Source: Squalus acanthias | Taxonomy: Eukaryota | Assembly (NCBI GenBank): GCA_030390025.1 | Contig: CM059432.1 | Coordinates: forward strand, 46,192,001 to 46,256,000 | Direction of reading: 5' to 3' | Length of the DNA: 64,000 nucleotides | Part shown: positions 13,154 through 44,822 of the stretch, piece by piece | Position numbering within the stretch: the first letter of the stretch is position 1 | Layout of the letters: every line of letters starts with the position of its first letter | Made by a program: the position numbers and the translations under genes | The notes under the pieces: generated by a model | What the model was told of the DNA's origin: nothing | The model's input: only the letters and a program-made list of their open reading frames with translations | Databases searched by the model: none

Positions 13154-13158
13154 GAGAT

Positions 13159-13176
13159 TGGTGATAGCTGGCAGGA
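13159..13176 (+). promoter_or_regulatory. E1 primer-binding site (tRNA-Ser-like, imperfect)
   Basis: TGGTGATAGCTGGCAGGA, 5 nt after the LTR; resembles the complement of a vertebrate tRNA-Ser 3' end (TGGCGTAGTCGGCAGGA, recalled from memory). Confidence 0.55.
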
Positions 13177-13227
13177 CGATAGGTTTTGTGTCAGATCATA
13201 GACAGTTTTAAGGGCAAGAGGCCCGGA

Positions 13228-14869
13228 ATGGAGGATAGGATTTCCTCCTAGGTGTTCAATAAGATTAACGTGTCTCAGTCATGGGTGCTGGAGATGCTGC
13301 GCTCTGAGTGTCCCCGGGATAGGGCTGCAGAGTGGACAGGTAGTAGGGATCACAGGAAGTCAAAGGAGAAAGCGATTTGGCTCCTGTGTCTGCAGAAGCA
13401 AGTTCAACTGCTCAGGGAGCAGGTTGAAAAGCTAGGGAACGAACTTAAAGAGTCTGAGGATAAGTCAGACGCGAGAGAGATAGTCGGGAGTAGACTATTA
13501 GAGGAACTGCACGAGGAAAGGCAGGAAAGACGTGCGCAAGAAGAGACCTGCCGGTAACACGGTTGAATACCTACAGTGTCAGGTTACAGAGGCCAAGGTA
13601 AACCAACAGGCCCTACGGGAAGAAAATGCGAGGCTAATAGCGACAGCTGACAGCTTGGAGGGCCAGCTAAGGGATATAAAGATAGCTTATAAAGTAGCCA
13701 GGGGTAGAGGCTATGAGGAAGCAAATCACGGACAATGTAAGGAAAGGATTCAAAAATTGACCCAAGCCTTGTCCGGAGCCAGAGGTATGGCCTGTTTAAT
13801 GTCACCTGGGGGAAACCAGGGTAGACTGGGACAAGGAGGGTCAGGAGCCTGATAATGGGGCTCAGGACAGGGAAGTCCGACCGGCGCCTGAAGCGCCACC
13901 GAGACCAATGTGGCCTCTGCGGCAGCAGAAGTTCAGTCCACCCGCACCAAACGGTGACCAGGGCCCACTGCAGAGCGATTACGTGGTCACGTACACAACC
14001 CCTCAGCTGCAAGCCATGCTATCAGGGACGCCCAAGCTCAAACGGGACGGGGACCCCTCAGTTCACTTTATGGAAGTAGAACAGGTAGGGGGGGTCAACG
14101 GATGTAGTGAGGGCGAGATCAACAGGCTGATGCTGTTTTCCCTTGACGGGGGATTGTATCAGAGCTTATCTGCAGCCACAAAGCTGGGAGGGGGCACCAC
14201 AGAGGGGTTGAAAGACGAGATCCTGAGGGCCATGGGGCATACCCAGAGTAGCCCGTTCTTACAAGTAGAACGGACCAGGCAGCTGGCCGGTGAGGCACCA
14301 GATGCATTCGCGGACAGGCTATGGCCTGTGTACGTAAAGGCAACTGGAGGGACGCTTGACCGCGCGCAGTTGATAGGGGCCCCCAGGAATCACTGGCTCA
14401 GGGTCCTTGTGGCGAACAGCTTGCCAAGGATCAGGGTCAGGGCAGAAGCGTGGTTTGACCCTGAGGACCTCGTGAATACGGAGGCAGGCATGCTCAGAAA
14501 GCTGAGTCTAGCCTTTAAGGCCGATTCTGGGGAGGTCAAATCAAAGGGAAGGGTCCACGAAATGAAAGCCAGTGAGGGTAATAGGAAGGAATGGCGACAG
14601 GAAAGGGTTAGTACCGACAAGTCCAGGACTTGTTTCGGGTGTGGGAGACGGGACACTGGAGGCGAGACTGCCCGTTCCCCAAAGGGGGGAGACCAGTCCC
14701 AGGGATCCTCCAGTGCAAACCACGTGTTACAGAGGCAGAGGGGACGACCGACGAGTCGTTCGAGCTTCTGGTGGCCGCCCTACTGAAGACTATGGGGAAG
14801 GACAAAGGCAAGTTAGACGCTGCCGTGAGCAGTGAAGCGCCTACCGCACCTGTACGCCCCCCACCCTGA
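13228..14869 (+). pseudogene. gag: E1 gag (coiled-coil N-terminus, capsid-like region, CCHC knuckle); stops and frameshifts
   Basis: ORF pieces 13252, 13532, 13908, 14630 align with E2 gag; CFGCG-x-TGHWRRDC knuckle split by a 1-nt deletion near 14647. Confidence 0.88.
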
Positions 14870-17800
14870 CTAGAACGCGCCCAGCCTGAGTACCTGTGCC
14901 TGCTCACGTACGATGAGTGGAGCAGGCCCTGTGTAAAGATGGGGGTGGAGACGGTGCAGGGGAAATATTTGGTGTGCACCGGGGCTTCCAGCACAGTGGT
15001 CCATTCAAAAAACCCGACCAATTCACCCTGGTCTAGCAGGGTCCCATTCAGGCTCGTGGGGTTCACAGCGAATGAGCAGGCTGGGGCAATCTCAAAACCC
15101 CTGGCCATAGAACTAGGATCCCTCCATATCACGTGGGAGTGTGTCCTGATGCAATGGGAACAGCCAGGATCAGGAGTCCTCGGGGCTGACTTTATGTTAG
15201 CCAGCCGAGTGATTGTGGATTTAAGGAATCACTGCCTATGGGGTGCAGCGGATTCAGATAAAGCCGAGGAGGTGCTAGTGATCCCAAGAGATAGGGAAGC
15301 AAGGGGTAGTGTGTGTACTATGAAGCCCAAGGGGAATTACGACCTAGAGCAGTTGGTCTGTAATACCCCAGCCAAGTATCAGGCGAACGTGCGGGACAAC
15401 CTCGCCGCATTCGCCACTCACAAGCACGACTGTGGCAGGGTGACAGGGGTAGAAGTCAGGGTGCAAGGGGACCCCATGTCACGGCCACAGAAACAGTACA
15501 GTTTCCCCAGAGAGGCAGAAGCCGACTTAGAGACGGCACTGGGATCCCTCGTAGAACAAGGGGTGTTGAGGCCGATAGCCACCCACGTAAACTCACCACT
15601 TTGGCCGGTTAGGAAGCCCGACCAGTCGTGGAGAGCCACCGTGGACTATCGAGTGCTCAATAAAAATATCCCAGCCTGCGCATCCACAGTCGCGGCTGTT
15701 GCTGACCTCATAGGGAGCATTCCAGTGACCACAACCACGTTCACGGTGCTGGATATCTCCAATGGGTTCTGGTCGGTTCCCCTCAAACGGAAAGACCAGT
15801 ACAAATTTGCCTTTACATTTAAAGGGCAACAGTACACCTGGACATGCCTTCCCCAGGGGTTTCACAACAGCCCCTCCATATTTCACCAGTGTATGGCCGA
15901 CGCACTCAAAGGCTTCAGCCGACCCAACCAGCTAATCCAGTATGTGGACGACTTGCTTTTGTTCTCCGCGGTGGCGGAGGAGTACAGGCCACTGCTGGAC
16001 GAGCTGTTGAGGCTGTTGCGGGAGACAGGGTTTAAAGTGAATCCAAAGAAAGCCCAGATCGGTCGGGAGGAAGTCAAATTCCTCGGGCTGACTGTGAGGG
16101 CTAGTGAGCGAGCGATAGATGAGGCAAAAAGAAAGGCAGTACAGGAGTTACCAGCTCCCAAGGATATAACAGGGTTAAGATCCTTCCTGGAACTCACAGG
16201 GTACTGCCGGGAATTCAGAGAGGGTTACGCAGCCACGGCAGCCCCTCTGCTTCGGCTCTCCGCAAGGGAGTCGGGTGGGAGTGGGACCAGAACTGCCAGG
16301 AAGCGTTCACCCGCCTCAAGGAGAATTTACAGACGGCACCCGTGTTGGGAGCCATTAACAGTAGTGAGGAATTCCTTTTGGAGGTAGCAGCCAGCGGGGA
16401 TAGCTTGAGCGCGGTGTTGCTCCAGGAGCGGCACGGCAAGCTACAACCCGCGGTCTACTCCTCAAGGGTTCTCACTGAGGTAGAAAGGGGATACTCCAAC
16501 TGCGAGAGGCATCTCCTAGCGACGCACTGGACCGTAAAGCTCTCCCAGCTCTTTACGGAATCATCCCTGATAACTTTACGAACTCACCACACCCCCACTC
16601 AGATGTTGTTAGACGGGAGGATAAAGGACGGAACAGTGAGCAGTGCCTGTATTGCTCGCTGGACTTTATTGCTCTCGCAAATGAATCTGAGAGTGCAGGG
16701 GTTGACAGAGCCAAAGCTGGCTATGAATTTAATCTACCCAGGGACTGCCCATGCGTGTACTGTAGAAGGGGTGTGGGACGTAGGTGTGGGATTCCGGGCC
16801 GGGATACACCCGACAGGCCGGGACATCTACGTAGATGGGTCCAGTTCGGTGGTGAACGGGGAGCATCTCAGCGGGTGTGGGATTTATGACCCCACAGCTA
16901 AGGTAGTGAAGGCCATTAAACTCCCCAGCACCCTGAGCGCTCAGCGCGCCGAACTGTCGGCGGTGGCGTACGTGGTTGCCCACCCCGACAAATTCCCCAC
17001 CCCCTATACCATCTGCTCGGATTCCATGTTCACCTGTAATTCATGCACGGAGTACTTGGCCATTTGGGCCAGGCGCGATTTCAAGTCCACAGATGGGAAG
17101 CCCCTAGCGACAGCACCGTTGCTAGGGAGAATTTTAAAAGTCGCGGGCACCCGGGGAGATTACTACATACACAAGGTTAAAGCCCATTCAAAGACAGAGC
17201 CCAAGTGGGAGGGCAACCAAAAGGCAGACGAGCTGGCCAAACAGGGGGCCAGGGAAGGAGTATTCTGGGATCCGTACAGAGCAGGTCTGGTAGCAGCAAT
17301 CTGGGACAAGGGAGGCACACGGGGTTAGCTTTGGCCCCGGACTTAACACAAGTCCAAGCACAGGATCCTGTACTTAAGGCCGTCCTTGTAAAAAGGGAGA
17401 ACGGCGCACCGGCAGAGGGTCCGTTCGGGGCAGTGGACATCACGGTTAAGGAAGGGATGCTTTTCAAAGGGGATCGTTGGATAGTTCCAGCACAGCACCG
17501 GGAGGAGTTCCTCCAGTTAGCCCAAGGGGGCCCGGGGGCAGGACACCCAGGCTGGAAACTACCTGGCAAAGGGTAGAGGAGGCGGGGTGGTGGCCCCATC
17601 TCAGGGAGGAAGTCAAAGAATTCTGTGCGAATTGTTTGGTGTGTGCGGCTAACAACCCCGATCCCCAGCGCAGAAAAGCCCCCATTGGACACACCAGAAG
17701 GGTAGAGGGACCATGGCGGTCCCTGCAGGTCGATTTCATCGGACCACTACCCACCACTAAAGCAGGTAGCAAGTACTGCTTAGTCCTGGTGGACGTATTC

Positions 17801-18748
17801 TCGAAGTGGTTGGAGGCCTTCCCATGCCGAGCAGCCACGGCACTAGTGACAGCTAGGATCCTGGTGAGGGAAGTATTCTCCCGATGGGGACTGCCACAGG
17901 TCGTGGAGTCCGACCAAGAGAGCCATTTCACGGGGCAGGTGATGCAGGCCACCTTAAAACTTTTGGGAATACAAGGGAAGTGGCATGTGGCTCACAACCC
18001 CCAGTCATCGAGGATTGCGGAGCGCATGAACCGGACACTGAAAAAAAGACTAAGGAAGGAGATAAGCCCGTTCCCGCAGAGATGGGACGAGGTCTTGCCT
18101 CTAGTCTTAATGGGTGTCCAGGCCAGCCCCTCCAGAAGCACAGGGTACTCTCCACATGAGCTCATAACCGGGAGGATTATGCGCACCCCAACCCACGTGT
18201 TGGCGCCGGTCCTCACCGAAGCTCAGGTCAGGGAGGTAAACCGGGACAGATTTGTCCACAATCTGTTTGACACTTTAAAACAGATTCACTGGCAGGCAGC
18301 CAGTAACCTGGGGAGCCAGCACTGAAAAAATCAGTTGTTGCTAGAGCCCCAGAGAACCCACGAGTGGAAGGTGGGAGACCAGGTAATGGTCAGGAACTAT
18401 GCCCACGTAGGGGTGTTCGAGCCACTATACATGGGGCCTCATAACATCGTAGATAAGGCGAGGCCCATGGTATATGTGGTGAGACTCCCGAAACGCATGA
18501 AATGGTATCACATCAACCAGTGCAAGTTGTTTAACCCCGAGGAGGGGAAAACAAAGGCAAGGAGAAACCAGGGCAGGATAATGAGCCTGGTGGATGCGGG
18601 TCTTCCTCCCATGGTGCGGGACGATGATGATGACCCGGAGGACGGGGCGGTAAGGAGAAGCAGTCGGGTCCCACGGCCTAGGGTGCCGTGGACGCCTCCT
18701 TACTCGCCGACCGCGAGCCACAAGAGGCCCCGGCTCGAGAGGTTTTAA
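14870..18748 (+). pseudogene. pol: E1 pol: protease, RT, RNase H tether, RNase HI, integrase; disrupted
   Basis: LVCTGAS (protease DTG mutated), LDISNGF, LPQG, YVDD, tether EVAAS...YSNCERHLLA, RNase H YVDGS/AELSA/SDS/GNQKADELA, integrase QVDFIGPL, ESDQ, ERMNRT, GPH. Confidence 0.93.
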
Positions 18749-18892
18749 CCGAGGGCACGCGATAACACGGAACGAACTATAAATATATGTAAATAACGAA
18801 AGCCAGACCTGTGGAGGAAAAACCTCTCACAGAGCGGTGTTGCTTTGTCTGTTTGTCTTAATATAGAAATCAGAAGAAACCGGAGAAGTAAA

Positions 18893-21125
18893 ATGGAGAC
18901 AACCCTAAGACTGAGCATGCTCATAATTCTGGTGGGAACGGGACACATGGAGAGAGGAGACACCGAGGTGTCCTTCCTCTACGGCTGCACAGGAGGAAAC
19001 GGACCCACCGTGACACGGGGGGGCAGGACAGGGGACACGGACGGGATGGCTGCTTACTTCCACGAGGGAAGGTGGCCGGGGTGGTTGGGGTTGAATTTGA
19101 CTAGATACTCCAACAACACCGGTTTCACATTTGGGGCAGCATCCATACCGTGTCCCAAGCTGCAGATCACAGCCACACGGGTTAGGGCGACCGAGGGGAA
19201 GCGCGTTTGTTTAAAATGTGAGGGACACATTCCCTTGGGACGGTGGTGGTGGTTGAGAAAGTTGGACCAGGCCAAGGGTAACAGATCCGCGGACTGGGAG
19301 AGACTGGGGGTCGACACGTACCGACAGATTACGGGGACGAATGGGGGAGTGGAAGTGTGCTGGAACAAGTGGTGGAAGGAGGAGCTGGGCATTTACGTGT
19401 GTGTGGGGGTCAGAACGGATCTGCCCGACGGATGTGTCGATTGCCTTTTCGCGGCAATGGCAGGACTCCGGGGCCGGGATCGGATGGGATCGGAGTTTGG
19501 ACTCCTGCGTGATCCCAGACCCTCCCAACACAGTAAATGCCACAGAACTCGTTGCACAAGAGAGGAAGCCCCTGCCCACAGCCCCACAGGCACAGGGAAC
19601 AGAAATTAGGTGTCCTGCCACCACACCGGGACCGAGAAACGGGTTAGTGTTGGTCCCAACGGGAAAGATCTTGTATCATGATGTACACTATGAGGTAGCA
19701 TCGGTCATTTTGAATTTAACCCGAGTGCAGCTGCCCCGGTGGTGTCCGGCAGAAACAGAGAGGCTTTACGAGACCTTGTTGAAAGTGATGCTCCGCCAGT
19801 TTTACGAGCTAAGTTATGAGGATGAGAGTCGGGAAGGGTTGTATACATTTAATACGAACAGTCGCGTTGGTTCGGGGAGACAGAGGAGAGGGGTGTTCAA
19901 CGATGCTGCCACAGTGTTCAGCACAGGAAAGTCTCTGATAAACAGTTTGGACGATGCACAGCTGCAGATGCAGGTCAACACTCTAGGGATCAGCTGCGAA
20001 AGATACTGCGGGAGGGTAACGAGCTAGAGGGGTCGGAGTTACGGGAGGACCAGGCTATGACCATACATTTAAAGGAGGTCATAGCCGAGCTGGAGGCGCA
20101 CGCTCAGACGATCAATAGTTTGATCAGGGAGGATCGGGATGCGTCGGCACAGGCAGCTAGAAATGATGCGTGTGTGCTGCACGGTGCGTGGCTGCTGAAC
20201 GAAGGGAGCAGTCATTTGGAGGACCTGCAGCAAGGTCGCGTCCCTTCCTGGGTTAGCAACCGGCATCTCACCGCGCTGAGCCCGTATGATAATCTGATGA
20301 GCCCGTGTCAACTCCAGCTGGCCTCAGAGGCCTACCCGGTTCTAGTTGATGGGGATCGTACTCCGAATGCTGGTAATGGGCAGGTCACAGCGGCCAGCAC
20401 TGGTATACTGGGTAGAAAACATTGGTGTCCTGAGGAACGGGGTGCACATGCGGCATAATGGGGCCCCACCGTTCGTAATAAAGTGGGAACACGCCATGAC
20501 CGGCACTGACCTCAAGGGGTGCCAGAGCAGGGGTGCGCACATGGTGTTGTGTCCCCAGCACCTGAACGCGTTCGATCGACCAGTGTGTGGGTTTGAATCG
20601 GAAAGTGCAGATCCCATCAAATGCACCATGGAGGTAATGGCCCAGGGCCACGTTCCACATCAGATAGCATCCGCGAGCAACGGGACGTACTGCGTCACGA
20701 CGAGTGTGGACCAGTATTGGGTACACCACGACACTTGGTGCCCTGTCGCTGACAAAACTTTCTGCTTCAAACCCCACACAGAGGTTCAGGTGGCGCAAGG
20801 GCGCATCATCCCCATTTCAGATTTCACCACGGTACACCTCACGGTGAGCGACACGATACAGGACCTGCAGCAATACGTAACACGGTTCAGGTATGAAATT
20901 CCTCCTCTGCCTGAACACCTCACAAAACTAATAAAGGAAGTTGAACTGTCTCAACAACACTTCTACACCCTCGAACAACGGAACAGGGAAGTGGGGGAAG
21001 AAATAGAAGAAATGGCTTCCCCGCCCTGGTGGGACTTTGATTTGAATGTCGAGATCCCTCCATGGATCCGAATAGTTTCACACACAATAGTGGTAGTACA
21101 ACTAATCATGGTGTTGTATCTGTAA
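18893..21125 (+). pseudogene. env: E1 env: signal peptide, Ig-like domain, F-like class I fusogen, TM; frameshifted
   Basis: METTLRLSMLIILVGTG signal; RQRR/GVFND cleavage site at 19878-19889; heptad region; Cys-rich region; PPWWD followed by hydrophobic TM. Confidence 0.85.
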
Positions 21126-22429
21126 AAGTTATCCTGTAAAAAGAGAAGGAAAGCACTCTGAAATCATTCGGAGGCCCTAATAAAAGGGTAACCAGGAGTT
21201 GTACTGCCTGTAAATATGGCGAATTGAATTGTTATAAGAAACGGGACCCCAGGTTTCATTGATAAGTAATGTACAGTTTGGTCGAGACCCACAATGTGCC
21301 TCCCGCAGCAGAAGACGACGAAATCCGTGATATTTCTGCTTTTGGTGACGAAATATCGAAGGGGGGAATGCAGCATCAGCTTTCTGGCCATTTTTATGAA
21401 TCATATTTTATATCCAAAACCCCAAGAAAGAACTGTACTGTTGGGTAAGCTTGTGGGAGTGGCTCAGGGAATAGGATTGCAAGCCAGGCTACCCTGACTA
21501 AGGTGCATTCATATGCAAATGAACATCTCACACTGACAGGCTGGGTGGAAGGGAACGCAGGCCGATTGACATCATCACCATCTAACATGATTACTGGGAA
21601 CAATACCCCTAGAGGTAACTCAGAGACACTATGCCCTCACATCAATAAAGCACAGTCCCAACTGAAACTGGTGGAAGGCAGGAGATGGCCAGGCCATTGT
21701 CTTCCAGGAGATAAGCCAGTTAAGCAAGTTTGGTTTGAGATTGAAACCCATTACCTGCTAATGGGGGCCATCAACTCAGGAAATGACAGACATCCAGTAA
21801 TCAGCACTCATTGTCTCTCCAGGTGCCAGGCCTGGGAGCAGGGAAATGGAATAACATTTTTCACAAAGATTTCAAAGGTCATGAGTCACTCCAGGGCCAC
21901 AGGAGGGTCCAGTCAGATCACCTGAGTCAATACATCGATCAGTATTGATGGGAGAAAAAGGTTTTGGGTACATAGGAGCCATTCGGGGGCTGCGCTCTCT
22001 CTCTCTTCTCCTCGGCGTCAATCTACAGCGAGTCTCCTGAGTGGGGCTCGGCTCAATGGAACACTGCCAGAAGCTGAGCGCTGCTCTTCATCCCTCATCA
22101 ACGGACCTCAACTCAAACTGGAACTTGGATATCACGTCGGCGGTAAGGAACCAGGAGCGAGATGTACAGGAAGAAGCTGCAAGCAAGACAACGGGCAATC
22201 GGGGTGAGCATATTGCCTGCGCCTACACATCCACAAGACCACTTAGCTGTGTGAGGGGGTGATTGTAAGTCCCAACCAAACCTTAGAGGGGTTTAGTGCT
22301 GTGGTCCTGTGTTAGTTTATTTCACGGGAGGGTTCTTTTACTAGACCGTGGTAATTTAGCACGGTATGGCTTGTTGGACAAGCCAGGGTTGTATTGTTTT
22401 GTACTGTTACGAGTGTCATTGTTAATCCT

Positions 22430-22977
22430 GATGTGGAGATGCCGGCGTTGGACTGGGGTGGACAAAAATGAGAAGTCGCACAACACCAGGTTATAGTCCA
22501 ACAGATTTATTTAATTTTACAAGCTTTCGGAGCTGTCGCTCCTTCGTCAGGTAAGTTAGCAATGAGAGAATCTCCCAGAATTCACAATTTAAACCCAGAC
22601 AAAATCTATTCACATTATTCGCTACAACAAAGAGCACAGCCAAGACAATGAGATGTGTCCCAGGGGGTCCAACGTGTCAAACCACCTGCTGGCTGCATAT
22701 CCTGTCAATTTGTGTTCTTGTGTTAGCCTTTTTAAAAAAAAAACAAAAAAAAAAAAACACCTGGGAAGACCGGCCATGATGTCAAGTCACGTTCTGTATC
22801 GTGACATGAACCCGATATCGCGATTGAGGCCATCCTCATGAGTGCGGAACTTGGCTATCAGTTTCTGCTCTATGATTTTGCGCTGTCGTGTATCTCGAAG
22901 GCCGCCTTGGAGAACGCTTACCCGCAGATCCGAGGCTGAATGCCCCTGGCTGCTGAAGTGTTGTGCGACTTCTCATT
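22430..22977 (-). mobile_element. Penelope-like element 3' fragment (GIY-YIG endonuclease C-terminus, pLTR, inverted tail)
   Basis: 12-bp TSD ATTGTTAATCCT (22418-22429 / 22978-22989); 22787..22960(-) translates HFSSQGHSASDLRVSVLQGG...EQKLIAKFRTHEDGLNRDIGF; terminal inverted copy of TGAGAAGTCGCACAACAC. Confidence 0.85.
22517..22552 (-). ncRNA. Minimal hammerhead ribozyme
   Basis: Minus strand CUGACGA-A-GGAGC-GACA-GCUCC-GAAAGCUU: both catalytic boxes, a 5-bp stem II and a palindromic short stem III. Confidence 0.75.
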
Positions 22978-23955
22978 ATTGTTAATCCTATTAAACACAA
23001 TATGGTTGAGCTCAAACGGGTGTCCGAGTCTGATCTGTCCATATAATCCCTATCGTCCAGAACTTGTAGTAAGAGGTGTGTTTTCGGTGCGCCCGAGAAA
23101 ACCACTTACACAACCGAAAACCTTATGAATGTCCTTAATAGCAACCTCACACTGCTGATTTAACAATTGATCATCTATTATCCCCAGGTCTCTTTCATGG
23201 TTCATCACCATTAACAGCTACTCCTGCACGGTATAAACATGCCAGGCCTTTCTTTACCCCAAGTGCATGACATTGCACTTCTCAATGTCAAATGATATCT
23301 GCCACAACTGTCCCATTCACGAATTTTTCTAAATCGGCCTATAATTTACTGATTTGACGTAAAGTAATTTTCACTATTCATATTTTTTTATGATCTGAAA
23401 ATTTAAGAATGGTTTTACTGAAGCCCTGCTTTGAATCATTAATGCAAATGATAACCAGCAATGGTCCTGATAAAGAGGCTTGTGCAACTCCATTCATAAC
23501 CAAGCCCCAGTCAGAACCATTCCTATTCATGACAGCCCTTTGATTATTATAACTGCCTAAAATCCTATGTGATCTAATTTTTGCTAATAGCTATCCATGC
23601 AGTACTTAATTAAACTTTGAAAGTTAAGGTATACAACATCAACCAAACTATTTTCAGCCACCATTCTGATCGATTCTAAAAGACCTCAATCAAATTAGTG
23701 AGGAAGAACATTTCCTAAAGCTATGTTGGGTATCCCTAATATCTGCTGAACCTGTCAAGTGATCATATATCACCTCCTTATGATTCTACCCAATAGTTTC
23801 CTTATGGCTATGATCACTTCTGTTTCTAATTTACGTAAATGACCTAGATTCAGAAACTTAATGCAAAGTGGTCAAATTTGCAGATAATATTAAATGAGGA
23901 GGAGTAGTGAAATTGGAAGAGGCAACTCAGGAACTACAGAATGAGTTGGACAAGA

Positions 23956-27089: not shown

Positions 27090-27383
27090 GAGGTGTGCCA
27101 AAATGCTGGTCATTTTTTTATTAAAGGCCGAGGTTCATGGCCCAACTTTTGTTTAGTGTTTTGGACATTATCTCCAGGTTGTGAGAACCAGTTATGTTAT
27201 TGACTGTTTTTTTGTGTTTATTTCTATGAGTTTGTCATGAGGAATTGACACACACAGAGTTTGTACAATAAATAAGTTTCTGTATTCAAAATATACATGG
27301 CTGGTGGTTGGAATTATTGGTGCCTTGGCCGGCTTAGGGGTTGCGTGCTGGGTTGATTCGTGTTTGTAGCAATGGCAGGGGCC

Positions 27384-32553: not shown

Positions 32554-33607
32554 CACTTGTTTTGACTCAAAACAAGCAAGTGATTATTAGTATTATAGAA
32601 CTGCTATGTAAATTTGATCTAGCCACTGGGGCAATGAAGTTGCTGCATACCTGCAAAGGTAAGTGTCAAAATCAACCGAGTAGTTTAAGTTTTGTTTCCC
32701 TATAAAGTTTAGACAGTTCTATTTCCAAGAAAGCAATTTTTGTATATTTAGAACAGGTATAGACATCACAAAGCCCCCTTTTAACCCCCTCCCTTTCCAA
32801 TAGAACATTAAATGGATACATACTACAGTCACTGGGCTGGAGTTTTTTTAGCCTTTTCTGTTAACTTCATGGCCATAATCTTCACTTGAAAGTGCTGTCT
32901 AGAAAAAAAGAGAGACAGAGGGAGAAAATACCCACCGAACTCCCAAAAAGGTCTGTATAAAGGTTAACGTGGACTAAGGAGAAGGAAGGTGATTAGGGCA
33001 ATGCACCACAAGCTGTGCACATTGCTGTCTGGGATGCCAGGGATGCCCTGATTATTGCGAGGTTCACTTAGGTTCCACCAGTGGATCCATCTCACAACCA
33101 AATGCAACAGTCACTTTTCTGCCCCCTCCCCAATGCCAGTAACACAAAGCAATCCTGCAAACAACCAAACACCCCTTTCTTGTCCCCCGATTGGTCGCTG
33201 TCAATTCATGTCTTCCTTTCATCATCAAACAACTTAAAAGGTCACTTGTCAGCCAGCAACCAAGAATGATTAAGATGAGAAAGTTGCAAAACAATAATAT
33301 TTATCTGCTTCAAGTAAAGAACAGAAACTTAACAACATAACAGTGTGAAAGACACCTAAGTGCATACCCTGGTGCAACTACAAATCTTTAATCTTCCCTT
33401 TCCTAGAGCTCCTACGTGGTGCAACCCCTGTGGCTTCAGCAGAGGTAGAGGCAGTCTGCTCAGATCCCTGCTCTGACTGTTGAGATGCTCTTGGCTGATG
33501 TCCTCTGGGTTTGGAGCTCATGAGTCCGCCAAAAACTGTCCCATCTGCAACTGTGCAGGGGAGACTCAGCCAACAGGAGACAAGGCAGCATGTCAGGTAC
33601 TGACTGA

Positions 33608-34542
33608 TGAAAGGATTCGCAAAATTTCATGTGTCCTCCCCGAAGATTTTTGTTGGACTTTTTAATAAGGAACCCTGGTCTGACTGAGTTTTAAAATCCA
33701 GGGCATAAAATGGCTGCGGTCAGACCTCGTGACCAAGAGCCTTTCAGACGCTGGCAAACTATCAGCTTGTGTATTCCGATGCAATGGGGACAAACCCAAT
33801 CAGGTCTACGCATAAGGCTTTCAAGGTGTTTGCTCAAATAATCAGCGGGGACATTGAGACTGGGCTGGCCCATCATCGAACCAGTCGGACAAAGGGGAGC
33901 AGTTGAAGAACTGGTATGATACAATTAACCTTTTGTTAAAATTCATCATGCCCAGATCAGACAATAGAAATGAGCTGATCTGAAGGGGGATTAGGACGAC
34001 CGCGAGGGTATAACTGGGAAGACCCAGCCCCTCTCTCTCTCTCTCTCTCTCTCTGCCTGGATCCCGGTTCACCCTGCCTGTCTGCCAGCAGCCAAGAAAG
34101 AAGACCAGAAACTTCATAGCCACGTTTCGACGGCAGAAACAGGGTACAAGGCCAGGCTTTTCCATCCATTTCACCGGTGAGCATTATCTTCTTCTGGCTG
34201 TCGCAAGACAATTTTAGTTAGGCATAAGGGTGGGAATTAATGGGGATATTGCTAAAATTGTAATTTTAGGATTTTCCCTCGATGTGTCCGTTCTCCTCCC
34301 ATGTTAAGTGTAAAACCGTCTTCATATGATACTGTTTCTCTGTAGTTTTACTTCTGTAAATAAACATTGGTTTTCCTCGCACCAATCCACGGGTCTGTTT
34401 GTTTGTCCTTATCGCCGCTCGATAAGTCCTGGGCTCAGAACTAGGAAGGGGATAGCAATTCGCAACCACACAATGGGCAGGACAGCTCAGGAAAACATAA
34501 CTGGCTGACCTACAAATAAGCCCGAGACAAAAACCCCTTACA
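33608..34542 (+). repeat. E2 5' LTR
   Basis: TGAAAGG...CCCCTTACA; TATAA near 34009, (CT)n tract, AATAAA 34359-34364; near-identical to 43641-44568. Confidence 0.95.
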
Positions 34543-34546
34543 GAAA

Positions 34547-34563
34547 TGGCGAACCAGGTAGGA
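34547..34563 (+). promoter_or_regulatory. E2 primer-binding site (imperfect, tRNA-Ser-like ends)
   Basis: TGGCGAACCAGGTAGGA, 4 nt after the LTR. Confidence 0.5.
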
Positions 34564-34617
34564 ACCCAGGTGAAAGCGTGTGATAAGGCAGACCGTGTTG
34601 CGGAGGAGGAATCCGCA

Positions 34618-36455
34618 ATGGAGCAAAGATTATCTATCTATGTGTGCGGCAAAGTTAATATCGCAAAAAAATGGGTGTGCGATATGTTAAAAGCCGAGCG
34701 CCCCCTAGATGCAGCTGCCCAGTGGACAGCAAGTAAAGAGTACAGGAGAGGTATTGAAAAAGCGGTCTGGCTCATGTGTTTGAAAAAGCAGGTTTTAGTG
34801 TTAGACCGTGCTGTTGCAACACGGGCAGCCAAGATCAAACAGTTGACCCGAGAGCTGCAGGAAAAGACTGCAGCGGAGGAGAAAGTAGTAGTGGCCCTCC
34901 AGGCAGTAAGCCAAGAGAGGGCACAGACGGCACGGGACCATCAGGCTGAGTTAGAGTGTATGAGGGCCCGGGCCGTTGAAGCTCAAAGGGAACACCAGGC
35001 AAAGTCAGAGCGCCTGGAAGACCGGATCGCTGAGCTCAAAAGTAGCGCTAGGCACAGGATGGAACACCTGGAATACCAGGTCAGAGAGGCGAGAGGTAGT
35101 GAGGTTAGGTTAATGGACAAGATTTCCAGCCTCACGCAAGAGTTGAAAGAGCAGGAGGAGAAAGTAGGCGAAGTAAAAGCAGCATATAAGCTGGCTTGTG
35201 CCCAGGGGTTTGAAGACACAGACCACGGCCCCTGCAGGCAAGAAATAGAAAGCTTGGGTATGGCCTTAGTAAGGGCGAAGGGCATGGTATGCCTCATTAG
35301 CCCAAAGATGGGCCAGTTGGATTTTACCAGCAACCCAAGCAGGGAAGTCCCACAGGCAGCTCCCAGAAAGGCACTGGTTAGGGAATCAGAGGTTTCGCGA
35401 CCGCCACCCATAGCCTCGAGTTTTCAGGAGGCCTGGCAGCAAGGTGGGGTGGAGGATGGAGCATTAGGGGAGATCCAGCAGGCCCTAGGGGATAAACCTG
35501 GTCCGGGACCAGTGTACCCCTTCCGACAACGGAGGTACAGCCCGCCAGCCGATGGCGAGGACCTAGGGGCCATCCAGAACCAGTTTGTAGTGCCGCATGG
35601 TACCCAACAGCTCAGAGCCATGGTTGGACACATCCCTAAGCTCACAGTGAGGGGGGACCCCTCTCTACATTTCCGGGAGATAGAGCAGGCAGCATCCGTT
35701 AATGACTGCAATGAGGCAGAACAAGCAAAAATGCTGCTGTTCTCTCTGGGTAGTGATCTCCTCCAAACCCTATCGGATGAGTGTAAGAAGGGACAGAAAG
35801 ATTACGAGGAGTTAAGGGATGAGATATTGAAGGCCATGGGACTAAATGATGGGAGTCCGTTCGCCCGAGTGGAAAAAATGGTATAGCTCCCCGGGGAGTC
35901 CCCGCAGGCATTCGCAGACAGGCTGTGGCCAGTCTACCAGAGCGCATGCCCGGAACGCCAGTGCGGACGTTCCTCAACAGAGACCAATTGGCCCACTGGC
36001 TCCGTTGTCTCATGACAAACTGCCTGCCCCAAATCCGAGCCCAGGCTGCGGCCTGGTTTGACCCCCGAAACCCCCAGACCACCGAAGAAACGGTGATCCG
36101 CCAGCTCACGGTAGCATTTAGAAATAACGGGAGGGGAATTGAGATGCCCCAGCCCAAAGGGAAAGTCCACGAGGTTAAACCTGGGGGCCAGAATAAGAAA
36201 GAGTGGCACCAGGAGGGAAACCGTCCCTCCTAGAATAAGTTAAACTGCTATGGCTGCGGGAAGGACGGCCACTGGCGCAAAGATTGCAAAAACCCCTGGA
36301 AGGACACCAAGGGAAAGAGCTCCACATCTCCAGGCCCAAAGGTAGACACTGGGACCCCCACAGTAGAGAGCGTTCTAGAATCACTGCGGGTTCTCCTGGT
36401 CAGTCAGGGGAAGATAGCAGTTCCCTCAGCCCCCTCTGACGATGCCCCGCAATGA
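34618..36455 (+). pseudogene. gag: E2 gag (long coiled coil, capsid-like region, CCHC knuckle)
   Basis: MEQRLSIY aligns with E1 MEDRISS; frameshift near 35930, stops at 35884 and 36231; CYGCGKDGHWRKDC at about 36246-36287. Confidence 0.88.
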
Positions 36456-39400
36456 CTGGAGGCCGCGCAGCCTGTCTACCTGTGTGCTCTCCGGTATGAT
36501 GGATGGAAGAGACCGCTCGTGCAGATGGAGGTAGAGAAGGTTAAAGGGACTTATCTGCTGGATACGGGGGCATCATGCACTGTAATCCACGCAGCTAATC
36601 CCACCACCTCACCTCTGTCTAGCGGGGTTCCATACGTTCTATCGGGGTTCACCGGCAAGGAACAGGCGGGAGCATTCTCCAAACCGCTCTCAGTCCGCCT
36701 GGGTCCACTCCAGACCAAGTGGACATGTGACCTGGCGAGGTGGGAAGCGGAGGGAGGAAAGGGGATCCTAGGGGCCGACTTCATCGTGGGCCACGGGATC
36801 CTCGTGGATCTCCAAAATCATTGCCTTTGGGGGGCTGATACGGGTAAGGAGAACGGTGTGGTAGTAATCCCAGGAAAGGAGGGGAAGGGAATCCTGTGTA
36901 CTGTGAAGCCGAAAGAAGGTTACGACCTCGGGCTCATGGTGGAGGGTGTCCCGGAGGAATTTAAAGCATTCGTGCAGGCTCACCTAGCTGCGTTCACCAC
37001 GCACAAACATGACTGCGGGAGGGTCACTGGGTTCGAGGTCAGGGTAGACGGAGACCCCATGCCCGGCTCCAGAAGCAGTATAACTTCCCCAGGGAAGCAG
37101 AGCCTGATATGGAGATAGCCATATCCTCGCTGGTACAGCAGGGAGTGTTGAGGCCCATAGCCACTCATGTTAATTCTCCGATTTGGCCGGTCAGGAAACC
37201 GGACAATTCATGAAGAGCCATGGTGGACTATCGGGTGCTCAACAGCAATATCCCCGCGTGTGCCCCCACGGTGGCAGCAGTTGCCGACCTTATTGGAAGC
37301 ATTCCAGCATCCGCGACTACGTTCATGGTGCTGGATATTTCGAATCGGTTTTGGTCGATCACCTTAAGGAGGGAAGACCAGTATAAGTTTGCCTTTACTT
37401 TTAAAGGGCAACAGTATACTTGGAACAGCTTGCCGCAAGGCTTTCATAACAGCCCCAGCATCTTCCACCAGTGCATGGCGAATAGTTTAAAGTAATTTAG
37501 TCAGCCCACCAAGTTGGTGCAGTATGGGGAGCATGGCCCGCTACTGGCCGAATTGCTGGAGCTGCTGCAGAGTATAGGGTTTAAGGTCAACCCGAAGAAG
37601 GCGCAGATCGGCCAGCGGGAAGTTAAATTCCTGGGTCTGACCGTCCGCGCAGGGGAGAGAGCCATAGATAAGGCAAGGAGGGAAGCGGTCCAAGAGCTAC
37701 CGGTCCCCAGTACTGTGAGGGGTGTGAGGTCGTTCTTAGGGCTAACGGGGTACTGCAGAGACTTTATCGAGGATTATGCAGCCACGGCAGCCCCTCTGCT
37801 CCGACTCCTACATAAGGGAGTGGAGTGGTCTTGGGATGGGGGGTGCCAGGCAGCATTTGTCCAGCTAAAGAGGGACCTGCAGACCGCACCAGCCTTGGGA
37901 GCGATAGATGGAGGGAGGGAGTTCTTTCTGGAGGTAGCGGCCAGCGGGGACAGCCTCAGTGCCGTGTTGCTCCAGGAGCGTCACGGCAGGCTGAGGTCCG
38001 TGGTCTACTCCTCCAGAGTACTCACTGACGTGGAGAGGAGCTACTCAATTTGTGAGTGGCACCTCTTGGCCACGTACTGGGCTGTGAAAAGATCATCGAT
38101 CTTCACAGGCACCTCTCCCATCACCCTCCTCACACACCACACGCCCACCCAGATGCTTCTGGACGGGAGGATTAAAGATGGGACAGTCAGCAGTGCACAC
38201 ATTGCGTGCTGGACCCTCCTCCTTTCCCAGATGGATCTGAGGGTGAGGGGCCTTTGCGAGCCCAAGCTCGCAGCCAATATGGTATATCCTGGAACAGCCC
38301 ATCGGTGTTCGATAGAAGGGGTATGGGAGGTGAACATTGGTCTGCGGACCGGGATACATCCCACAGGCTGCGAGATCTATGTAGACGGTTCCAGCATGGT
38401 ATCCGCTGGCGAACGTCTCACTGGGTGTGGAGTTTATGACCCAACAGCAAACATTGCCTTGGCGATCAAGCTCCCCAGTACCATGAGCGCCCAGCAGGCG
38501 GAGCTGTCCGCGGTGGTGTACGTGGTTACCCACCCCGAAATCTTCCCCACCCCATACACGATTTGCTCGGACAGTATGTTCACCTGCAACTCGTGCACGG
38601 AATACCTGGCAATCTGGTCCCGTCGCGGATATACCTCCGCTGACGGGAGGCCCTTAACAGTAAAAACCCTGCTGGAGAAAATCCAGGCAGCCGTGGGGGA
38701 GGAAGGCGAGGTCTTCATCCACAAGGTGAAGGCTCACTCCTCCACAGAACCCCGCGGCCAGGGTAACCAGCAAGCTGACGCGCTGGCCAAGGAGGGTGCC
38801 CGCGCTGGCATTTTCTGGGACCCCTATGGGTCCGGGTCCGTGGCGGCAGTTAGAGGCAGGATGGGACACAGAGGAGCTTAGGGGTAGCGTTGGCCCTGGA
38901 TCTTAAAACGGTCCAAGCCCAGGACCCTGTCCTGAAAACCGTCACAAGCGCAGTGAGCAAGGGTAGGAGGATAGAAGGCCTTTACAGCGCAGCAGCCCTC
39001 TCCATAAGGGAAGGCATGCTGTTTAAAGAAGGACAGTGGGTAGTGCCCCAGCAGCACCGGAGGGAGTTCCTTCAACTGGCCCATGAGGGTCCGGGAGCGG
39101 GACACCCCGGGCCTGAGGCCACCTGGCAACGGGTGGAACAGGCGGGATGGTGGCCGGGACTCCGGGAAGATGTCTGCGAGTTCTGTGCTAGCTGTCTTGT
39201 GTGCGCTGCAAACAACCCCGACCCCCACAGAAGGAAGGTGCCCATGGGACACGTCAGGAGGGTGGAGGGACCATGGCAGTCGATCCAGATCGACTACATC
39301 GGGCCCCTGCCCACCGCCCAGGGAGGCTACAAATACTGCCTCGTCCTGGTGGACGTGTTCTCCAAGTGGGTAGAAGCCTTCCCCTGTAGAACAGCCACAG

Positions 39401-40681
39401 CACTGGGCACTGCAAGGATCTTGGTACGGGAGGTGTTCTCGCGGTGGGGACTACCCCAGTTTGTGGAGTCCGACCAGGGATGCCACTTCACCGGCAAGTC
39501 ATGCAGAACACCCTTATGCTGCTCGGTATTCGGGGGAAGTGGCACGTGGCCCACAATCCACAGTCCTCCGGGATTGTGGAACGTATGAACCGCACCATCA
39601 AGGAAAAGTTGAGGAAGGAGACCATGGACTCGCCCCAAAAATGGGCAGAGGTCCTGTCCCTAGTCCTCATGGGGATCTGAGCAAGTCAGTCAAAGAGTAT
39701 GGGGTATTCCCCGCACGAGCTCATGACCGGCAGGGTCATGAGGACCCCCACCCACGTCCTAGCCCCAGTTCTTACGGAAGGGCAGCTTCGGGAGGTAAAC
39801 TGGGACCAATTCGCCCGAACGCTCCTTGAGCGCCTGAAACAGATTTATGAACAGGCCGCAGGTAGCATGGGGAAGCAGCATCGGAATAACCGACTGCTGC
39901 TCGAACCTAATAAAACACATCAATGGGAGATAGGGGACCTGGTAATGAAAGGAACTACGCCCGCATGGGGAGTTTTGAGCCACTGTACATGGGACCCTAT
40001 AGCATAGTGGATAAAGCCAGCCCCATGATTTACGCAATAAAATTGCCCCAGCGCACGAAATGGTTTCACATAAACCAGTGCAAGCTGTATAAGCCGGAGG
40101 CGAAGAAGCAGGCAGCTGGGACCCAATCCGAGGTTAGAAGTCCTCAGCTCCCAGCAGGTCTCAGCTCACAGGCAACACGCTCAGGTACAGTTTCGTGCGT
40201 TGAGGGAGGAGTCACCCAGGCCCCTGTTCAAACCACCCCCCCTCTCTTCTGGGACTCAGGTGGGGAGGAGGAGGAGCCTGAACCAGATAGCCCCGCCCCC
40301 GACCCAGGTTTTGAACCTGGAGGCGAGGACTCTCAGCCAACAGCAGCAGGCAGCGAGGGATTGCCTGTCCCCAGCTCAGACTTGGGAGGGGAGGAGCCAC
40401 GGGGGAAAAGCCCCCAGCCAGCGAGGACTGCAACCCACGGCAAGGGTCCGCTCGCCAGGGTAGCCCCACCTATAGCACTTCCTAGGAGGTCCCCTCGGAC
40501 ACCTCAACCTAGGAAGGCATGGTCGCCGACTCTCCAGTTTAAAGGGGTGACCTCCCGAGCAAAAGTTAAGTTAAAAGACAAAGGTGCCCAGCCAACTGTC
40601 GCAGGCTGTGAGGGACCAGAAGTAAGGGTCCATACAGCCACGCTGCAGGGAGCAGCCTGCCGCAGTCCTGACAGAGTTTAA
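36456..40681 (+). pseudogene. pol: E2 pol: protease, RT (YVDD deleted), tether, RNase HI, integrase with long C-terminal tail
   Basis: LLDTGAS, LDISN, LPQG, EVAAS tether, YVDGS...GNQQADALA, H-H-C-C zinc finger, QIDYIGPL, ESDQG, VERMNRT, GPY. Confidence 0.93.
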
Positions 40682-40936
40682 GCTAGCCGCTCGGAGACGG
40701 GTGGCGAATGTACAGAACTTGGTCTGAGAAGTTTGTAGTTTTAAGTTAGATTGTTGAGTTTGATTTTAAGGTGCGGAACCGTATAGCAGTTTTAAGATGG
40801 AACCGTTCCAGTGTATGTGTGTTTGTCCATGTGAGCTGAGGTCGAGGGACACGCTCACACTTCACCCCAGCCAAGGAGCCTATAGGGAGCCTGGCTAGAT
40901 GTTCTTCATTTTTTTTTTCAGGCAATTAAAAGGGAA

Positions 40937-43241
40937 ATGTTCGGAGGCCTGATCTTGCTCGCCCTGTCTGGGCTGAGCCTCGCGAGAAGGGGCGACACCG
41001 AGGACCACTGCATCTTCGGATGCTCTGGAAGGACGGCGCCTCTAGCCCACGATGGAAGTGGCCTACGCGAGGCGGATGAAATTGCCTCGTATACTCACGA
41101 GGGGAACTGGCCTGGATGGCTGGGGTCAAACTCGACCCAGTACTCGAGCCAGACCGGTTTTACATATGGGGAGGCCTCCCTCCAGTGCCCGAGGATACGG
41201 ATCATCACCCCAAGGATCAGCGTCACCGTGGGCAAAAGGATTTGTTTATCATGTAAGGGCAACGTTCCCCTGGGGCAATGTTCCCCTGGATAGGTGGTGG
41301 TGGCTCAGAAAATTAAGCAAAGACATGGGGAACCCCAGGGTAGAATGGGAAAGGTTAGGGAACGACACCCACAGGACCATCACGGGGACCCAGGGAGGGT
41401 TAAGTGTGTGCTGGGACAAATGGTGGGAACCGGATCAGGGGATCTATGTCTGTATGTGGGGATCAGAGAGAGTCTGCCCCATGGGCATTTCCATCATTTT
41501 CCACAGCCAGTGGCAGGATAGCGGGAGGGGGATGGACTGGGGGTCGCGCCTGGACGCATGCGCGATCCCATACTCCCCAATCTCGGTTAATGCCACTGAA
41601 TTAGTGACCCGTCCCCGACAGCCCCTGCCCACGACCCTGACGTCACGGACTGTAGCAGAGGCATGCCCCGCCACCACCAAGGGACCAGGGAATGGCCTGG
41701 TGCTGGTACCCACAGACCAGGTGCTCTATCAAGGGGTGCATTACGCGGTGGCCTCGGTGATCTTAAATCTCACTGAGGTGCAATTGCCCACGTGGTGCCC
41801 TGCAGAGACAGCTAAACTATATCAAGCCCTCTTAAGGGAAACATTTCAAAAGTTTTACGAATTCGATTTTGCGGAGATCGATAAGACCAAACTGTATACA
41901 CATAGCCACGAGGCTTGGGACGGGGTGGGGAGACAGAGAAGGGGTATTGTTAATGATGTTTTAACGGGTTTTAATGCGGGGTCTTCAGTTATTAATAGTT
42001 TAGATGACATTGAACTTCAGACGCAGATCAACGGTCAAGAAGACCCAATTAAAGAAGGTCTTAACTGATGAGAACAAGGTAGTGGGTTCGGAACTGCATG
42101 AAGACCAGGCCATGACTCTCCATCTAAAGGAGATCATAGCGGAGCTGGAGATATATGCAAAGACGGTGAATGCACTCATTAGGGATGATCGGAATACATC
42201 TGACCAGGCTGCGCAAAACGAGGTGTGCCTACTGTACGGGGCATGGTTGCTGGGCGAGGGCCGCAGAAATCTGGAGGACTTAAAACAGGGTTTGGTCCCC
42301 TCCTGGATCAGCAACAAGCACCTCGCAGCCCTCCACCCTTTTGAGAATGCATTAAGCCCATGCCAGCTCCGACTAGCTTCCGAGGCCTACCCAGTCCCAG
42401 TGGACTGTGGACGTTCCAACCACAATATCATGGGGATAATAGTAAGGATGCCGGTCATGGGCGGGACGGCCCGACCCGCGCTGGTATACAGGGTGGAGAA
42501 CATTGGTGTCATTCAGGGGGGTGTACACGTTCGTTTTACAGCGGTCCCGCCCTACGTCATAAAGTGGGATCACGCTATGACGGGTGTGACCTCTCGGGGT
42601 GCCGTAGCCGGGGAGCACACATCAGCCTGTGTCCCCAGCACTTGAATGCCTATTCGAAACCACAATGCGGGTTCAGAGCTGCTGACGCGAAACCTATAAA
42701 TTGTACCATGGAAGCCATGGCACAAGGCCATGTTTCCCCACAGGTAGCATATATAGGAGGCAGGACATATTGCGTCACCACAGGAGCGTCTCACTACCAG
42801 CACGGACAGCACAGCTGGTGCGCGGTGAGTGACAGCAGCTTCTGCTTTAAACCCAAGGCAGAAGTTCAAGTGGCCCAGGAACGAATTGTCCCCATTCCTG
42901 AACCATCCACGGTTCACCTAACTGTAAGAGAGAATTTCACCAACCTCCAAAAGTATGTGGCTCACTTCGGCTACCAGATTCCCCCTCTCCCAGAACACCT
43001 CATTAAACTATTAAGAGCCGTAGTGGTGTCGCAAAAGCATTTTTATACACTGGAACAGAAGACTATCCAGATAGGGGCCGATATTCTGGATATTATGACC
43101 CCACCCTGGTGGGACATCTTTGAGAATATCGAGGTCCCCTCCTGGATTCGTCTGGCATCACACGCGCTCGTAATTTGTCAGCTCGGGATCGTCCTCTACC
43201 TGGTTTGTGTCCAGTGTAGGAAAAGGGTCCCGAGGCAGTAG
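40937..43241 (+). pseudogene. env: E2 env: signal peptide, Ig-like domain, F-like fusogen, TM, short basic tail; frameshifted
   Basis: MFGGLILLALSGLSLA signal directly after a T-rich CAG acceptor (40921); DQGIYVC; RQRR/GIVND at 41931-41942; PPWWD, TM, RKR; a 16-bp tandem duplication (41257-41288) causes one frameshift. Confidence 0.87.
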
Positions 43242-43640
43242 CAAGAACCCAAAGGGTTTGGAGGGACCAGTATGCTCGGGTAGATGAGACACTCGCGTGA
43301 ATTCCGTGTCGCACCACTTACGAGTGATGGCGGCCTAATTTTATTATTTTTAATAAAGATGGTCCCCTCCGTTTGTTGTTTTTTTTTGATTAAAAAAAAC
43401 TGTTTTTTCCCAAGTGGTGCAGGGGTATGTTGGAACCCCTCCGTGCTGGGATTACTGGAAAAGAATTTGTTTCCTATCTAAAATGCCTGCTGTACACTGC
43501 GGTTATTCTCCAAGTGGGGGAATGTACGTGTCAGGGGAATTAGGATAGGTAAATAAAGGGGAAGGTTGTTTGCGACAGTCAGAAATTTTGTTCACCTCCT
43601 ATGGACACTTCAAGCAAGTTTAAGTCTCCACAGGGGGGAC

Positions 43641-44568
43641 TGAAAGGATTCGCAAAATTTCATGTGTCCCCCCCCGAAGATTTTTGTTGGACTTATTAAT
43701 AAGGAACCCTGGTCTGACTGAGTTTTAAAATCCAGGGCATAAAATGGCTGCGGTCAGACCTCGTGACCAAGAGCCTTTCAGACGCTGGCAAACTATCAGC
43801 TTGTGTATTCCGATGCAATAGGGACAAACCCAATCAGGTCTACGCATAAGGCTTTCAAGGTGTTTGCTCAAATAATCAGCGGGGACATTGAGACTGGGCT
43901 GGCCCATCATCGAACCTGTCGGACAAAGGGGAGCAGTTGAAGAACTGGTATGATACAATTAACCTTTTGTTAAAATTCATCATGCCCAGATCAGACAATA
44001 GAAATGAGCTGATCTGAAGGGAGATTAGGACGACCGCAAGGGTATAACTGGGAAGACCCAGCCCCTCTCTCTCTCTCTCTGCCTGGATCCCTGTTCACCC
44101 TGCCTGTCTGCCAGCAGCCAAGAAAGAAGACCAGAAACTTCGTAGCCACGTTTCGACGGCAGAAACAGGGTACAGGGCCAGGCTTTTCCATCCATTTCAC
44201 CGGTGAGCATTATCTTCTTCTGGCTGTCGCAAGACAATTTTAGTTAGGCATAAGGGTGGGAATTAATGGGGATATTGCTAAAATTGTAATTTTAGGATTT
44301 TCCCTCGATGTGTCCGTTCTCCTCCCATGCTAAGTGTAAAACCGTCTTCATATGATACTGTTTCTCTGTAGTTTTACTTCTGTAAATAAACATTGGTTTT
44401 CCTTGCACCAATCCACGGGTCTGTTCATTTGTCCTTATCGCCGCTCGATAAGTCCTGGGCTCAGAACTAGGAAGGGGATAGCGATTCGCAACCGCACAGC
44501 GGGCAGGACAGCTCAGGAAAACATAACTGGCTGACCTACAAATAAGCCCGAGACAAAAACCCCTTACA
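43641..44568 (+). repeat. E2 3' LTR
   Basis: Direct repeat of 33608-34542, followed by TSD CTGA. Confidence 0.95.
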
Positions 44569-44822
44569 CTGATGTGGGGGCTGGGGTGTGGTGGGAGGCA
44601 ATGGGTGAGAAGTGGAAGCGCTTTCAGTGGAGTCCCCACTTCCATGTCCCCTTTCGCCATCATCCATCTCACGGCCTAGCTGCTAACACTGTGCTGGAGA
44701 ACACTTTGGTGCAGAGCAGTGGGGCACTGCAAGGCCAAGGCTAGGGTATCAGTCATTCTACTGAAAGTGGCATCCAGAGTCTGCAAGTCCTTGCTCAAGG
44801 CCTGCCTGGACTCATGTGATTG

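Follow-up and report, generated by a model that had tools for sequence, protein, structure and literature searches.

A 64,000-nt stretch of Squalus acanthias DNA (contig CM059432.1; hereafter the window, in whose numbering all positions are given) carries two proviruses on the plus strand, E1 (12122..23110) and E2 (33608..44568), the second of which is the main subject of this report. Very probably, two viruses belonging to one retroviral lineage with an envelope gene entered the germ line of a cartilaginous fish independently, as E1 and E2; they had long diverged under purifying selection, and each inserted copy then decayed neutrally. Published papers are cited by their PMC numbers.

Two Families of One Lineage

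E2 is bounded by long terminal repeats (LTRs) at 33608-34542 and 43641-44568, which are 97.2% identical over 936 columns in a self-comparison of the window, open with TG and close with CA, and have CTGA on either side as a 4-bp target-site duplication (TSD; left copy 33604..33607, right copy 44569-44572). These ends coincide exactly with those proposed in a first-pass annotation, which had described E2 as a second, divergent provirus of the same lineage as E1. The TSDs of the two elements differ (CAAC for E1), and neither their left nor their right flanks share homology beyond a generic repeat. Both flanks of E2 are the continuation of one older repeat that the provirus splits (33005..33607, continuing at 44595-44671), and an uninterrupted minus-strand copy of this repeat lies at 60616-61302 (70% and 80% identity).

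By tblastx, the two elements line up in one order at the protein level throughout gag to env, and their DNA is clearly divergent, as had been claimed: blastn identity is 69.0% in pol and 63.6% in env, and no gag match was obtained at E<1e-5. The dN/dS comparison proposed with the first-pass annotation was made on 22 natural gap-free in-frame segments, unrepaired and with trimmed ends, which together span 2227 codons. Amino-acid identity over these codons is 62% and varies by region (reverse transcriptase (RT) 78%, tether/RNase H 71%, integrase (IN) 70%, transmembrane (TM) subunit 60%, protease 58%, surface subunit (SU) 55%, and Gag 44%), and identity at the three codon positions is 0.72, 0.78, and 0.45. 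Synonymous sites approach saturation (pS 0.74, against a pN of 0.235), and bootstrapping gives dN/dS an upper bound of 0.13. The LTRs proved as largely unalignable as first described, matching only at the U5 end (20/23 nt, E 0.01) and in a (CT)n tract behind a TATA-like box. The shared U5 motif, GCCCGAG...AAAACCCCTTACA (34520..34542 in E2), includes the integrase att end, and its pattern has four matches in the window, all at the four LTR ends, against none in 100 shuffles.

Differing TSDs, unrelated flanks, and near-saturated synonymous sites thus indicate two separate insertions, made by viruses with a long history of independent evolution under purifying selection, and the proposal of two distinct families without segmental duplication is upheld. 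A single family or a local duplication with divergence produced by decay, which the shared orientation, 10.5-kb spacing, and collinearity might suggest, is refuted by the TSDs, flanks, and codon comparison and can practically be discarded, since nucleotide divergence is 35%, mostly at third positions, versus 1.9-3.9% within LTR pairs, and relatives 97-99% identical to E2 occur in four sequencing runs.

Age and Decay of the Insertions

The E2 LTRs differ by 17 substitutions at 927 sites (8 at CpG; Kimura two-parameter distance (K2P) 0.0186) and two indels, and those of E1 (12122-13153 and ~21369-23110) by 39 substitutions at 1031 sites (15 at CpG; K2P 0.039). The two divergences are themselves different (Fisher p=0.01; 0.02 without CpG sites), and the E1 insertion looks older. 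Published shark substitution rates of 0.5e-9 (PMC10699275) and 2.2e-10 (PMC4422223) would date the insertion of E2 to ~19-42 Myr ago and that of E1 to ~39-89 Myr ago, compared with 4 and 9 Myr under a mammalian rate. The few-percent LTR divergence on which the first-pass annotation relied is therefore real (1.9% for E2, 3.9% for E1), but the conclusion that both families were active fairly recently was overstated, as a divergence of this size in sharks probably corresponds to tens of millions of years.

E2 is a complete but dead LTR provirus. Its genes contain five internal stops and about eight frame changes and have lost the RT active-site motif to a deletion; the number of stops falls within the neutral expectation of 3.1-6.2 at 1-2% change. 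Ten DNA sequencing runs (organism labels A-E, one unlabelled) contain 41-48% of the words sampled from E2. No RNA run is on record as containing them, which is uninformative about expression. In the part of the tables covered for four of these runs, long contigs differ from E2 by ~1-3%, mainly by T>C and A>G, a bias expected from CpG decay, and lack several of E2's breaks; their primer-binding site (PBS) is also nearer than E2's own to that of L005, a reference genome discussed below. E2 thus belongs to a multi-copy family common to related species and is decaying neutrally. Across 34650-38500, contigs cover gag several times more deeply than pol in four of four runs (X3, X4, X8, and X10). Depth is not equivalent to copy number, and the excess hints weakly that the E2 family includes a subfamily lacking pol.

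Both E1 and E2 shift frame in the linker between RNase H and integrase. E2's shift is missing from related contigs in four of four runs, which points to decay, and a programmed frameshift at this site was rejected on these grounds. The earlier suggestion that shared features are functional rather than decayed accordingly holds for the coding regions (omega at most ~0.13) and probably for the U5 end and the gag-pol junction described below, but fails for the linker.

Genome Organization and the Gag-Pol Junction

Between the LTRs of E2, Pfam matches and the anatomy of env give the retroviral order gag-pro-RT-tether-RNase H-IN-env, and the LTR pair, TSD, PBS, and polypurine tract are all present. 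In the 5' LTR (33608..34542), putative signals comprise a TATA-like box at ~34009, the (CT)n tract at 34031-34054, a donor-like GTGAG at 34177, and AATAAA at 34359. The PBS (34547..34564) starts 4 nt past the LTR and is identical to the L005 PBS at 14 of 18 positions; its primer is presumably tRNA-Arg. The gag gene (34618..36455) contains two internal stops and one frame change. In both elements, Gag has a long charged N-terminal region, which reads as coiled-coil-like and weakly matches the L005 Gag coil, followed by a motif with the spacing of the major homology region (MHR; ~35884-35925 in E2, interrupted by a stop) and a single CCHC knuckle (36243-36293; Pfam zf-CCHC, E 8e-5).

The gag gene ends in UGA followed by CUG in E2 (36453..36458) or CUA in E1 (UGA CUA at 14867), in frame with the protease and the remainder of pro-pol. 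Between the UGA and the first Met, the residue is kept at 15 of 23 codons, 8 of them by synonymous change; this conservation ahead of the first Met suggests that the codons are translated, which implies readthrough. UGA followed by CUA or CGG is a type II, alphavirus-type readthrough context, and UGA gag-pol junctions are known from the fish and frog retroviruses SSSV, ZFERV, toad ERV, and XtERV-S (PMC13517186, PMC8278194). We therefore infer that UGA-CUR is the readthrough site for a Gag-Pro-Pol product. Weighing against this, no stable RNA structure was found downstream of the UGA (z 0.03 and -1.20). A consensus structure of the U5-PBS region was likewise unsupported (-0.99 kcal/mol).

The pro-pol region of E2 (36456..40681; three internal stops and four frame changes) comprises, by Pfam, protease (~36504-36719), RT with its active-site motif deleted near 37526, tether RNase H (37832-38230), RNase H (38369-38800), and integrase (39043-40090), the last continuing as a low-complexity tail to 40681. 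This C-terminal tail spans ~190 aa in E2 (40110-40681) versus ~60 aa in E1 (18560-18748), and the two tails have only a short RRS..P.PR..W.P motif in common. Downstream of env, the polypurine tract (43630..43640) directly precedes the 3' LTR (43641..44568). As read here, E1 and E2 thus have the layout of class III retroviruses related to snakehead retrovirus (SnRV), namely a coiled-coil Gag with one knuckle and an in-frame gag-stop-pol arrangement.

The Envelope Protein

In E2, a pyrimidine tract with AG at 40900..40921 is the probable splice acceptor for env (40937..43241; three frame changes). The Env proteins of both elements lie behind such a probable acceptor and possess a signal-like N-terminus, a C-W-Y.C segment, an RQRR cleavage site (41928-41939 in E2), and a TM helix (~43155-43211) followed by a very short tail. 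Env homologues were found in sharks (sawshark), in a skate, and in one further record only, a distribution that points to a cartilaginous-fish host.

The Env body is probably F-type and its N-terminal head probably Ig-like (~41200-41480 in E2). A sawshark homologue, P0214, which is 63-76% identical, has an Atlas feature score of 0.92 to Fusion_gly F0 (201/256 features) and a TM-score of 0.58 to a Baculo_F-type model. Ig-domain proteins make up almost all of the 50 best structural matches to the model of a second homologue, P0218 (Z up to 6.7), and Pfam Ig_3 matches E1 Env at E 0.077. Several points count against these assignments: the P0218 Ig model is of low confidence (mean pLDDT 40; 50-62 across the domain; Z <8), the AlphaFold model of the Env body has a pLDDT of 33, no F family match for Env was returned by Pfam or PDB sequence searches, and the F-type and Ig evidence comes from P0214 and P0218 and not from E2 Env itself. 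For the SU/F2 piece of E2, the best score in the Atlas search was 0.87, which serves as a lead only. Foldseek gave no matches to viral models at E<=0.001. In literature searches, no paper was found that reports an F-like Env for retroviruses of sharks or of the SnRV type.

Some further observations concern env. An RGD follows the signal peptide in E1, E2, and P0218 and is missing from the skate homologues; an integrin-binding reading was dropped for this reason. The shark and skate gene models P0001, P0215, P0216, P0217, and P0219 (Niban-like, cadherin-like, and uncharacterised) fuse env pieces to host exons, and are probably annotation artefacts or possibly exonised env. The SnRV-like env N-terminus of L005 (6131-6500) shows a V..G..V.L.C and Y.C pattern and may also carry Ig-like domains, with no Ig domain detected there by Pfam.

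Phylogenetic Placement

Three trees were used: an RT tree of 32 of 51 rows, from which long branches and near-duplicates had been removed; an RT-tether-RNase H tree of E2 and 17 of 24 references with coverage of at least 450 aa; and a broad Pol tree retaining 161 of 168 hits. Their rows hold no nameable gamma-, beta-, or lentivirus, ERV-L, or fish FLERV, and one named foamy virus (feline foamy virus). E1 and E2 form a clade at 100/100 within the canonical retroviruses at 100/99 in the 32-row RT tree; in the longer tree, E2 falls within the canonical retroviruses at 100/100. Among 1.84 billion representatives, the closest Pol relatives are frog, coelacanth, and shark proteins. FastTree and a quick tree place E1 together with SnRV and Ovex1-like elements in one broad group, which the careful trees neither confirm nor exclude. 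A direct sister relation with SnRV (L005) was compatible with RT alone (approximately unbiased (AU) test, p=0.24) and rejected on RT-tether-RNase H (p=0.013). A scan of viral contigs with E1 RT yielded four loci, all weak (32-44% over short stretches), which were not used.

SnRV-related, class III endogenous retroviruses (ERVs) have been named 'clade Huo' (PMC6001957). E1 and E2 appear to work like SnRV-type, class III-like retroviruses, and the feature mix of their lineage varies modestly on that of known class III-like ERVs. Full-length RNA started in the 5' LTR would be translated into Gag and, by occasional readthrough of UGA in the CUR context, into Gag-Pro-Pol, while a spliced RNA would yield Env for cleavage at RQRR. 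Env would then fuse membranes by a scaffold of the paramyxovirus/foamy F type, with the N-terminal Ig-like head probably serving in attachment, and integrase would recognise the conserved TTACA U5 end and produce the 4-bp duplication.

A bolder reading, which we regard as rather unlikely, assigns E1 and E2 to a deep canonical-retrovirus branch of cartilaginous fishes that is so far undescribed, lies outside both the lokiretroviruses and SnRV plus the epsilonretroviruses, and combines an orthoretrovirus-type Gag, a readthrough Pol, an Ig-headed F-type Env, and a foamy-style donor in R. If true, this branch would preserve, as a living fossil, a layout that connects foamy viruses with orthoretroviruses, and an F-type Env would be ancestral in retroviruses and later swapped for a gamma-type Env, as in the RT neighbour CmiERV-I. 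The literature covered, which did not include two key papers on SnRV and on a cartilaginous-fish foamy element, holds no description of this set of features.

In the preferred reading of two class III-like viruses of one lineage, the value of the pair lies in its divergence: with synonymous change close to saturation, oddities that both elements retain reflect selection on the replicating viruses. The pair accordingly lends support to UGA-CUR readthrough in a fish retroviral lineage, to a constrained U5 end, and to an Ig-capped F-type Env on a canonical-retrovirus Pol.

E1 and the Genomic Surroundings

E1, the comparison provirus, carries three internal stops, about nine frame changes, and an altered protease DTG motif. 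Its 3' LTR contains additional segments of 148 nt and 560 nt. The former (22126-22273; gap at 12876/12877 in the 5' LTR) includes a donor-like GTGAG, and was thus probably lost from the 5' LTR after insertion. The latter is an insertion at ~22431-22980 with an 11-bp flanking duplication and short inverted ends, and related ends also occur at 24806-24856 and 29073-29134. A minus-strand frame within it appears to resemble the C-terminus of a Penelope-type endonuclease. The E1 PBS (13159-13177) matches that of L005 at 6 of 18 ungapped positions, versus 14 of 18 for E2, and by eye is nearer to that of CmiERV-I; the E1 and E2 families may use different primer tRNAs.

The window is rich in transposons, including LINE RT, Harbinger, and other fragments. 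A Harbinger-type DNA transposon lies between E1 and E2 (25196-28616; Myb/SANT open reading frame (ORF) on the plus strand, 409-aa DDE_Tnp_4 ORF on the minus strand), and a decayed DDE_Tnp_4 fragment (61622-62041) adjoins the uninterrupted copy of the repeat split by E2. Non-LTR RT fragments are found at 709-2124 (-), 30198-30572 (-), and 46648-47521/55156-56001, and include an inverted pair with 86% identity.

Two ERVs side by side are ordinary, and the proximity of E1 and E2 (a gap of 10,497 nt) would most simply be due to chance in ERV-rich, repeat-rich DNA. That the lineage instead prefers, or is tolerated in, certain regions, such as an ERV cluster or a piRNA-like locus, would fit the transposon-dense window and the position of E2 inside an older repeat; we consider it improbable, given that neither family has a further copy or a solo LTR in the 64-kb window.

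Comparison With Known Systems

We take L005/P0010 to be SnRV on the basis of its UAG GGC gag stop (as in PMC13517186) and its Gag layout (as in PMC2717909). The 10,688-nt length of SnRV also fits this identity. SnRV shares with E1 and E2 a coiled-coil Gag, one CCHC knuckle, and an in-frame gag-stop-pol arrangement, and with E2 the PBS noted above and a U5 that ends in TTACA with a similar heptamer upstream; its Env shows a weak collinear similarity to theirs that is not significant (hhalign E 0.06-0.12). It differs in its junction (UAG-GGC versus UGA-CUR) and in its place in the RT-tether-RNase H tree, where sisterhood is rejected; E1 and E2 in turn differ from SnRV in an Env with its own start behind an acceptor and a very short tail, and in having no conserved accessory ORFs.

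ERV Pol proteins of frogs and the coelacanth (Aquarana/Lithobates XP_073459965-type, Xenopus A0A803JYW4, and Latimeria H3A6Q2/H3A008) gave the top scores (449 and 404 bits; E 1.6e-101). Compared by Pol alone, these and the Ovex1-like elements of reptiles and birds occupy the same basal part of the canonical retrovirus tree as E1 and E2, with no supported sister relation. A partial protein of Heptranchias perlo (P0019) reaches 80% identity. CmiERV lineage I of the elephant shark, which its source paper groups with SnRV (Han, 2015; PMC4422223), resembles E1 and E2 by eye in its RT motifs and in a gag end, P-Q-TGA-C, ahead of the protease, and has an LTR divergence of 0.033 (PMC4422223). It differs, again by eye, in a gamma-type Env (CxxC, ISD, CX6CC) and a long leader, and also in its LTR ends, CCCCTTACA occurring at 0 places in the part of the supplement covered (PMC4422223).

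Foamy viruses (Spumaretrovirinae) resemble E1 and E2 in several respects, and these elements could be cartilaginous-fish foamy or foamy-like viruses, whose Pol would come from a spliced RNA and whose Env would be F-type like foamy gp130. The best PDB matches of RT are foamy Pol (E 7.5e-51 versus 9e-42 for MLV), foamy Env has an F-like fold (PMC11468914), and the short leader and the donor-like GTGAG in R, upstream of the poly(A) signal, recall foamy LTRs (PMC3694450). A grouping with feline foamy virus does not appear in the trees and is nevertheless compatible with AU tests (p=0.395 on RT, 0.22 on the longer alignment). We judge this identity unlikely, because the Gag of E1 and E2 combines an MHR-like motif with a CCHC knuckle, both absent in spumaviruses (PMC2717909), and because gag and pol share one frame across the stop. 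Moreover, the 400 nt (E2) and ~245 nt (E1) behind env contain no conserved accessory, bel-like ORF, RT-RNase H scores 138 bits to foamy versus 449 to the frog ERV, and the donor 9-mer matches no better than expected by chance (E 8.5).

Lokiretroviruses (Wang and Han; PMC7947760) likewise share a probably F-like Env, dual RNase H, a coiled-coil Gag region, and an RxRR site with E1 and E2, which would then be the first from a shark. This is very improbable: proteins with loki RT motifs form a separate clade (100/100) outside which the RT of E1 and E2 falls, and their grouping with E1 and E2 is rejected (AU p=0.011), so that only env could have a loki origin. In the supplement of the paper, PLSRWPM occurs at 64 places and FNIFL at 73, as opposed to 0 for the E1/E2 motif GFHNSP, and the table row covered records lokiretroviruses in 0 of 3 Chondrichthyes genomes (PMC7947760). 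An F-type Env on a canonical-retrovirus Pol would mean that an F-like Env is not diagnostic of a lokiretrovirus, and E1 and E2 thus bear on the origin of retroviral envelopes, for which four scenarios have been set out (PMC7947760).

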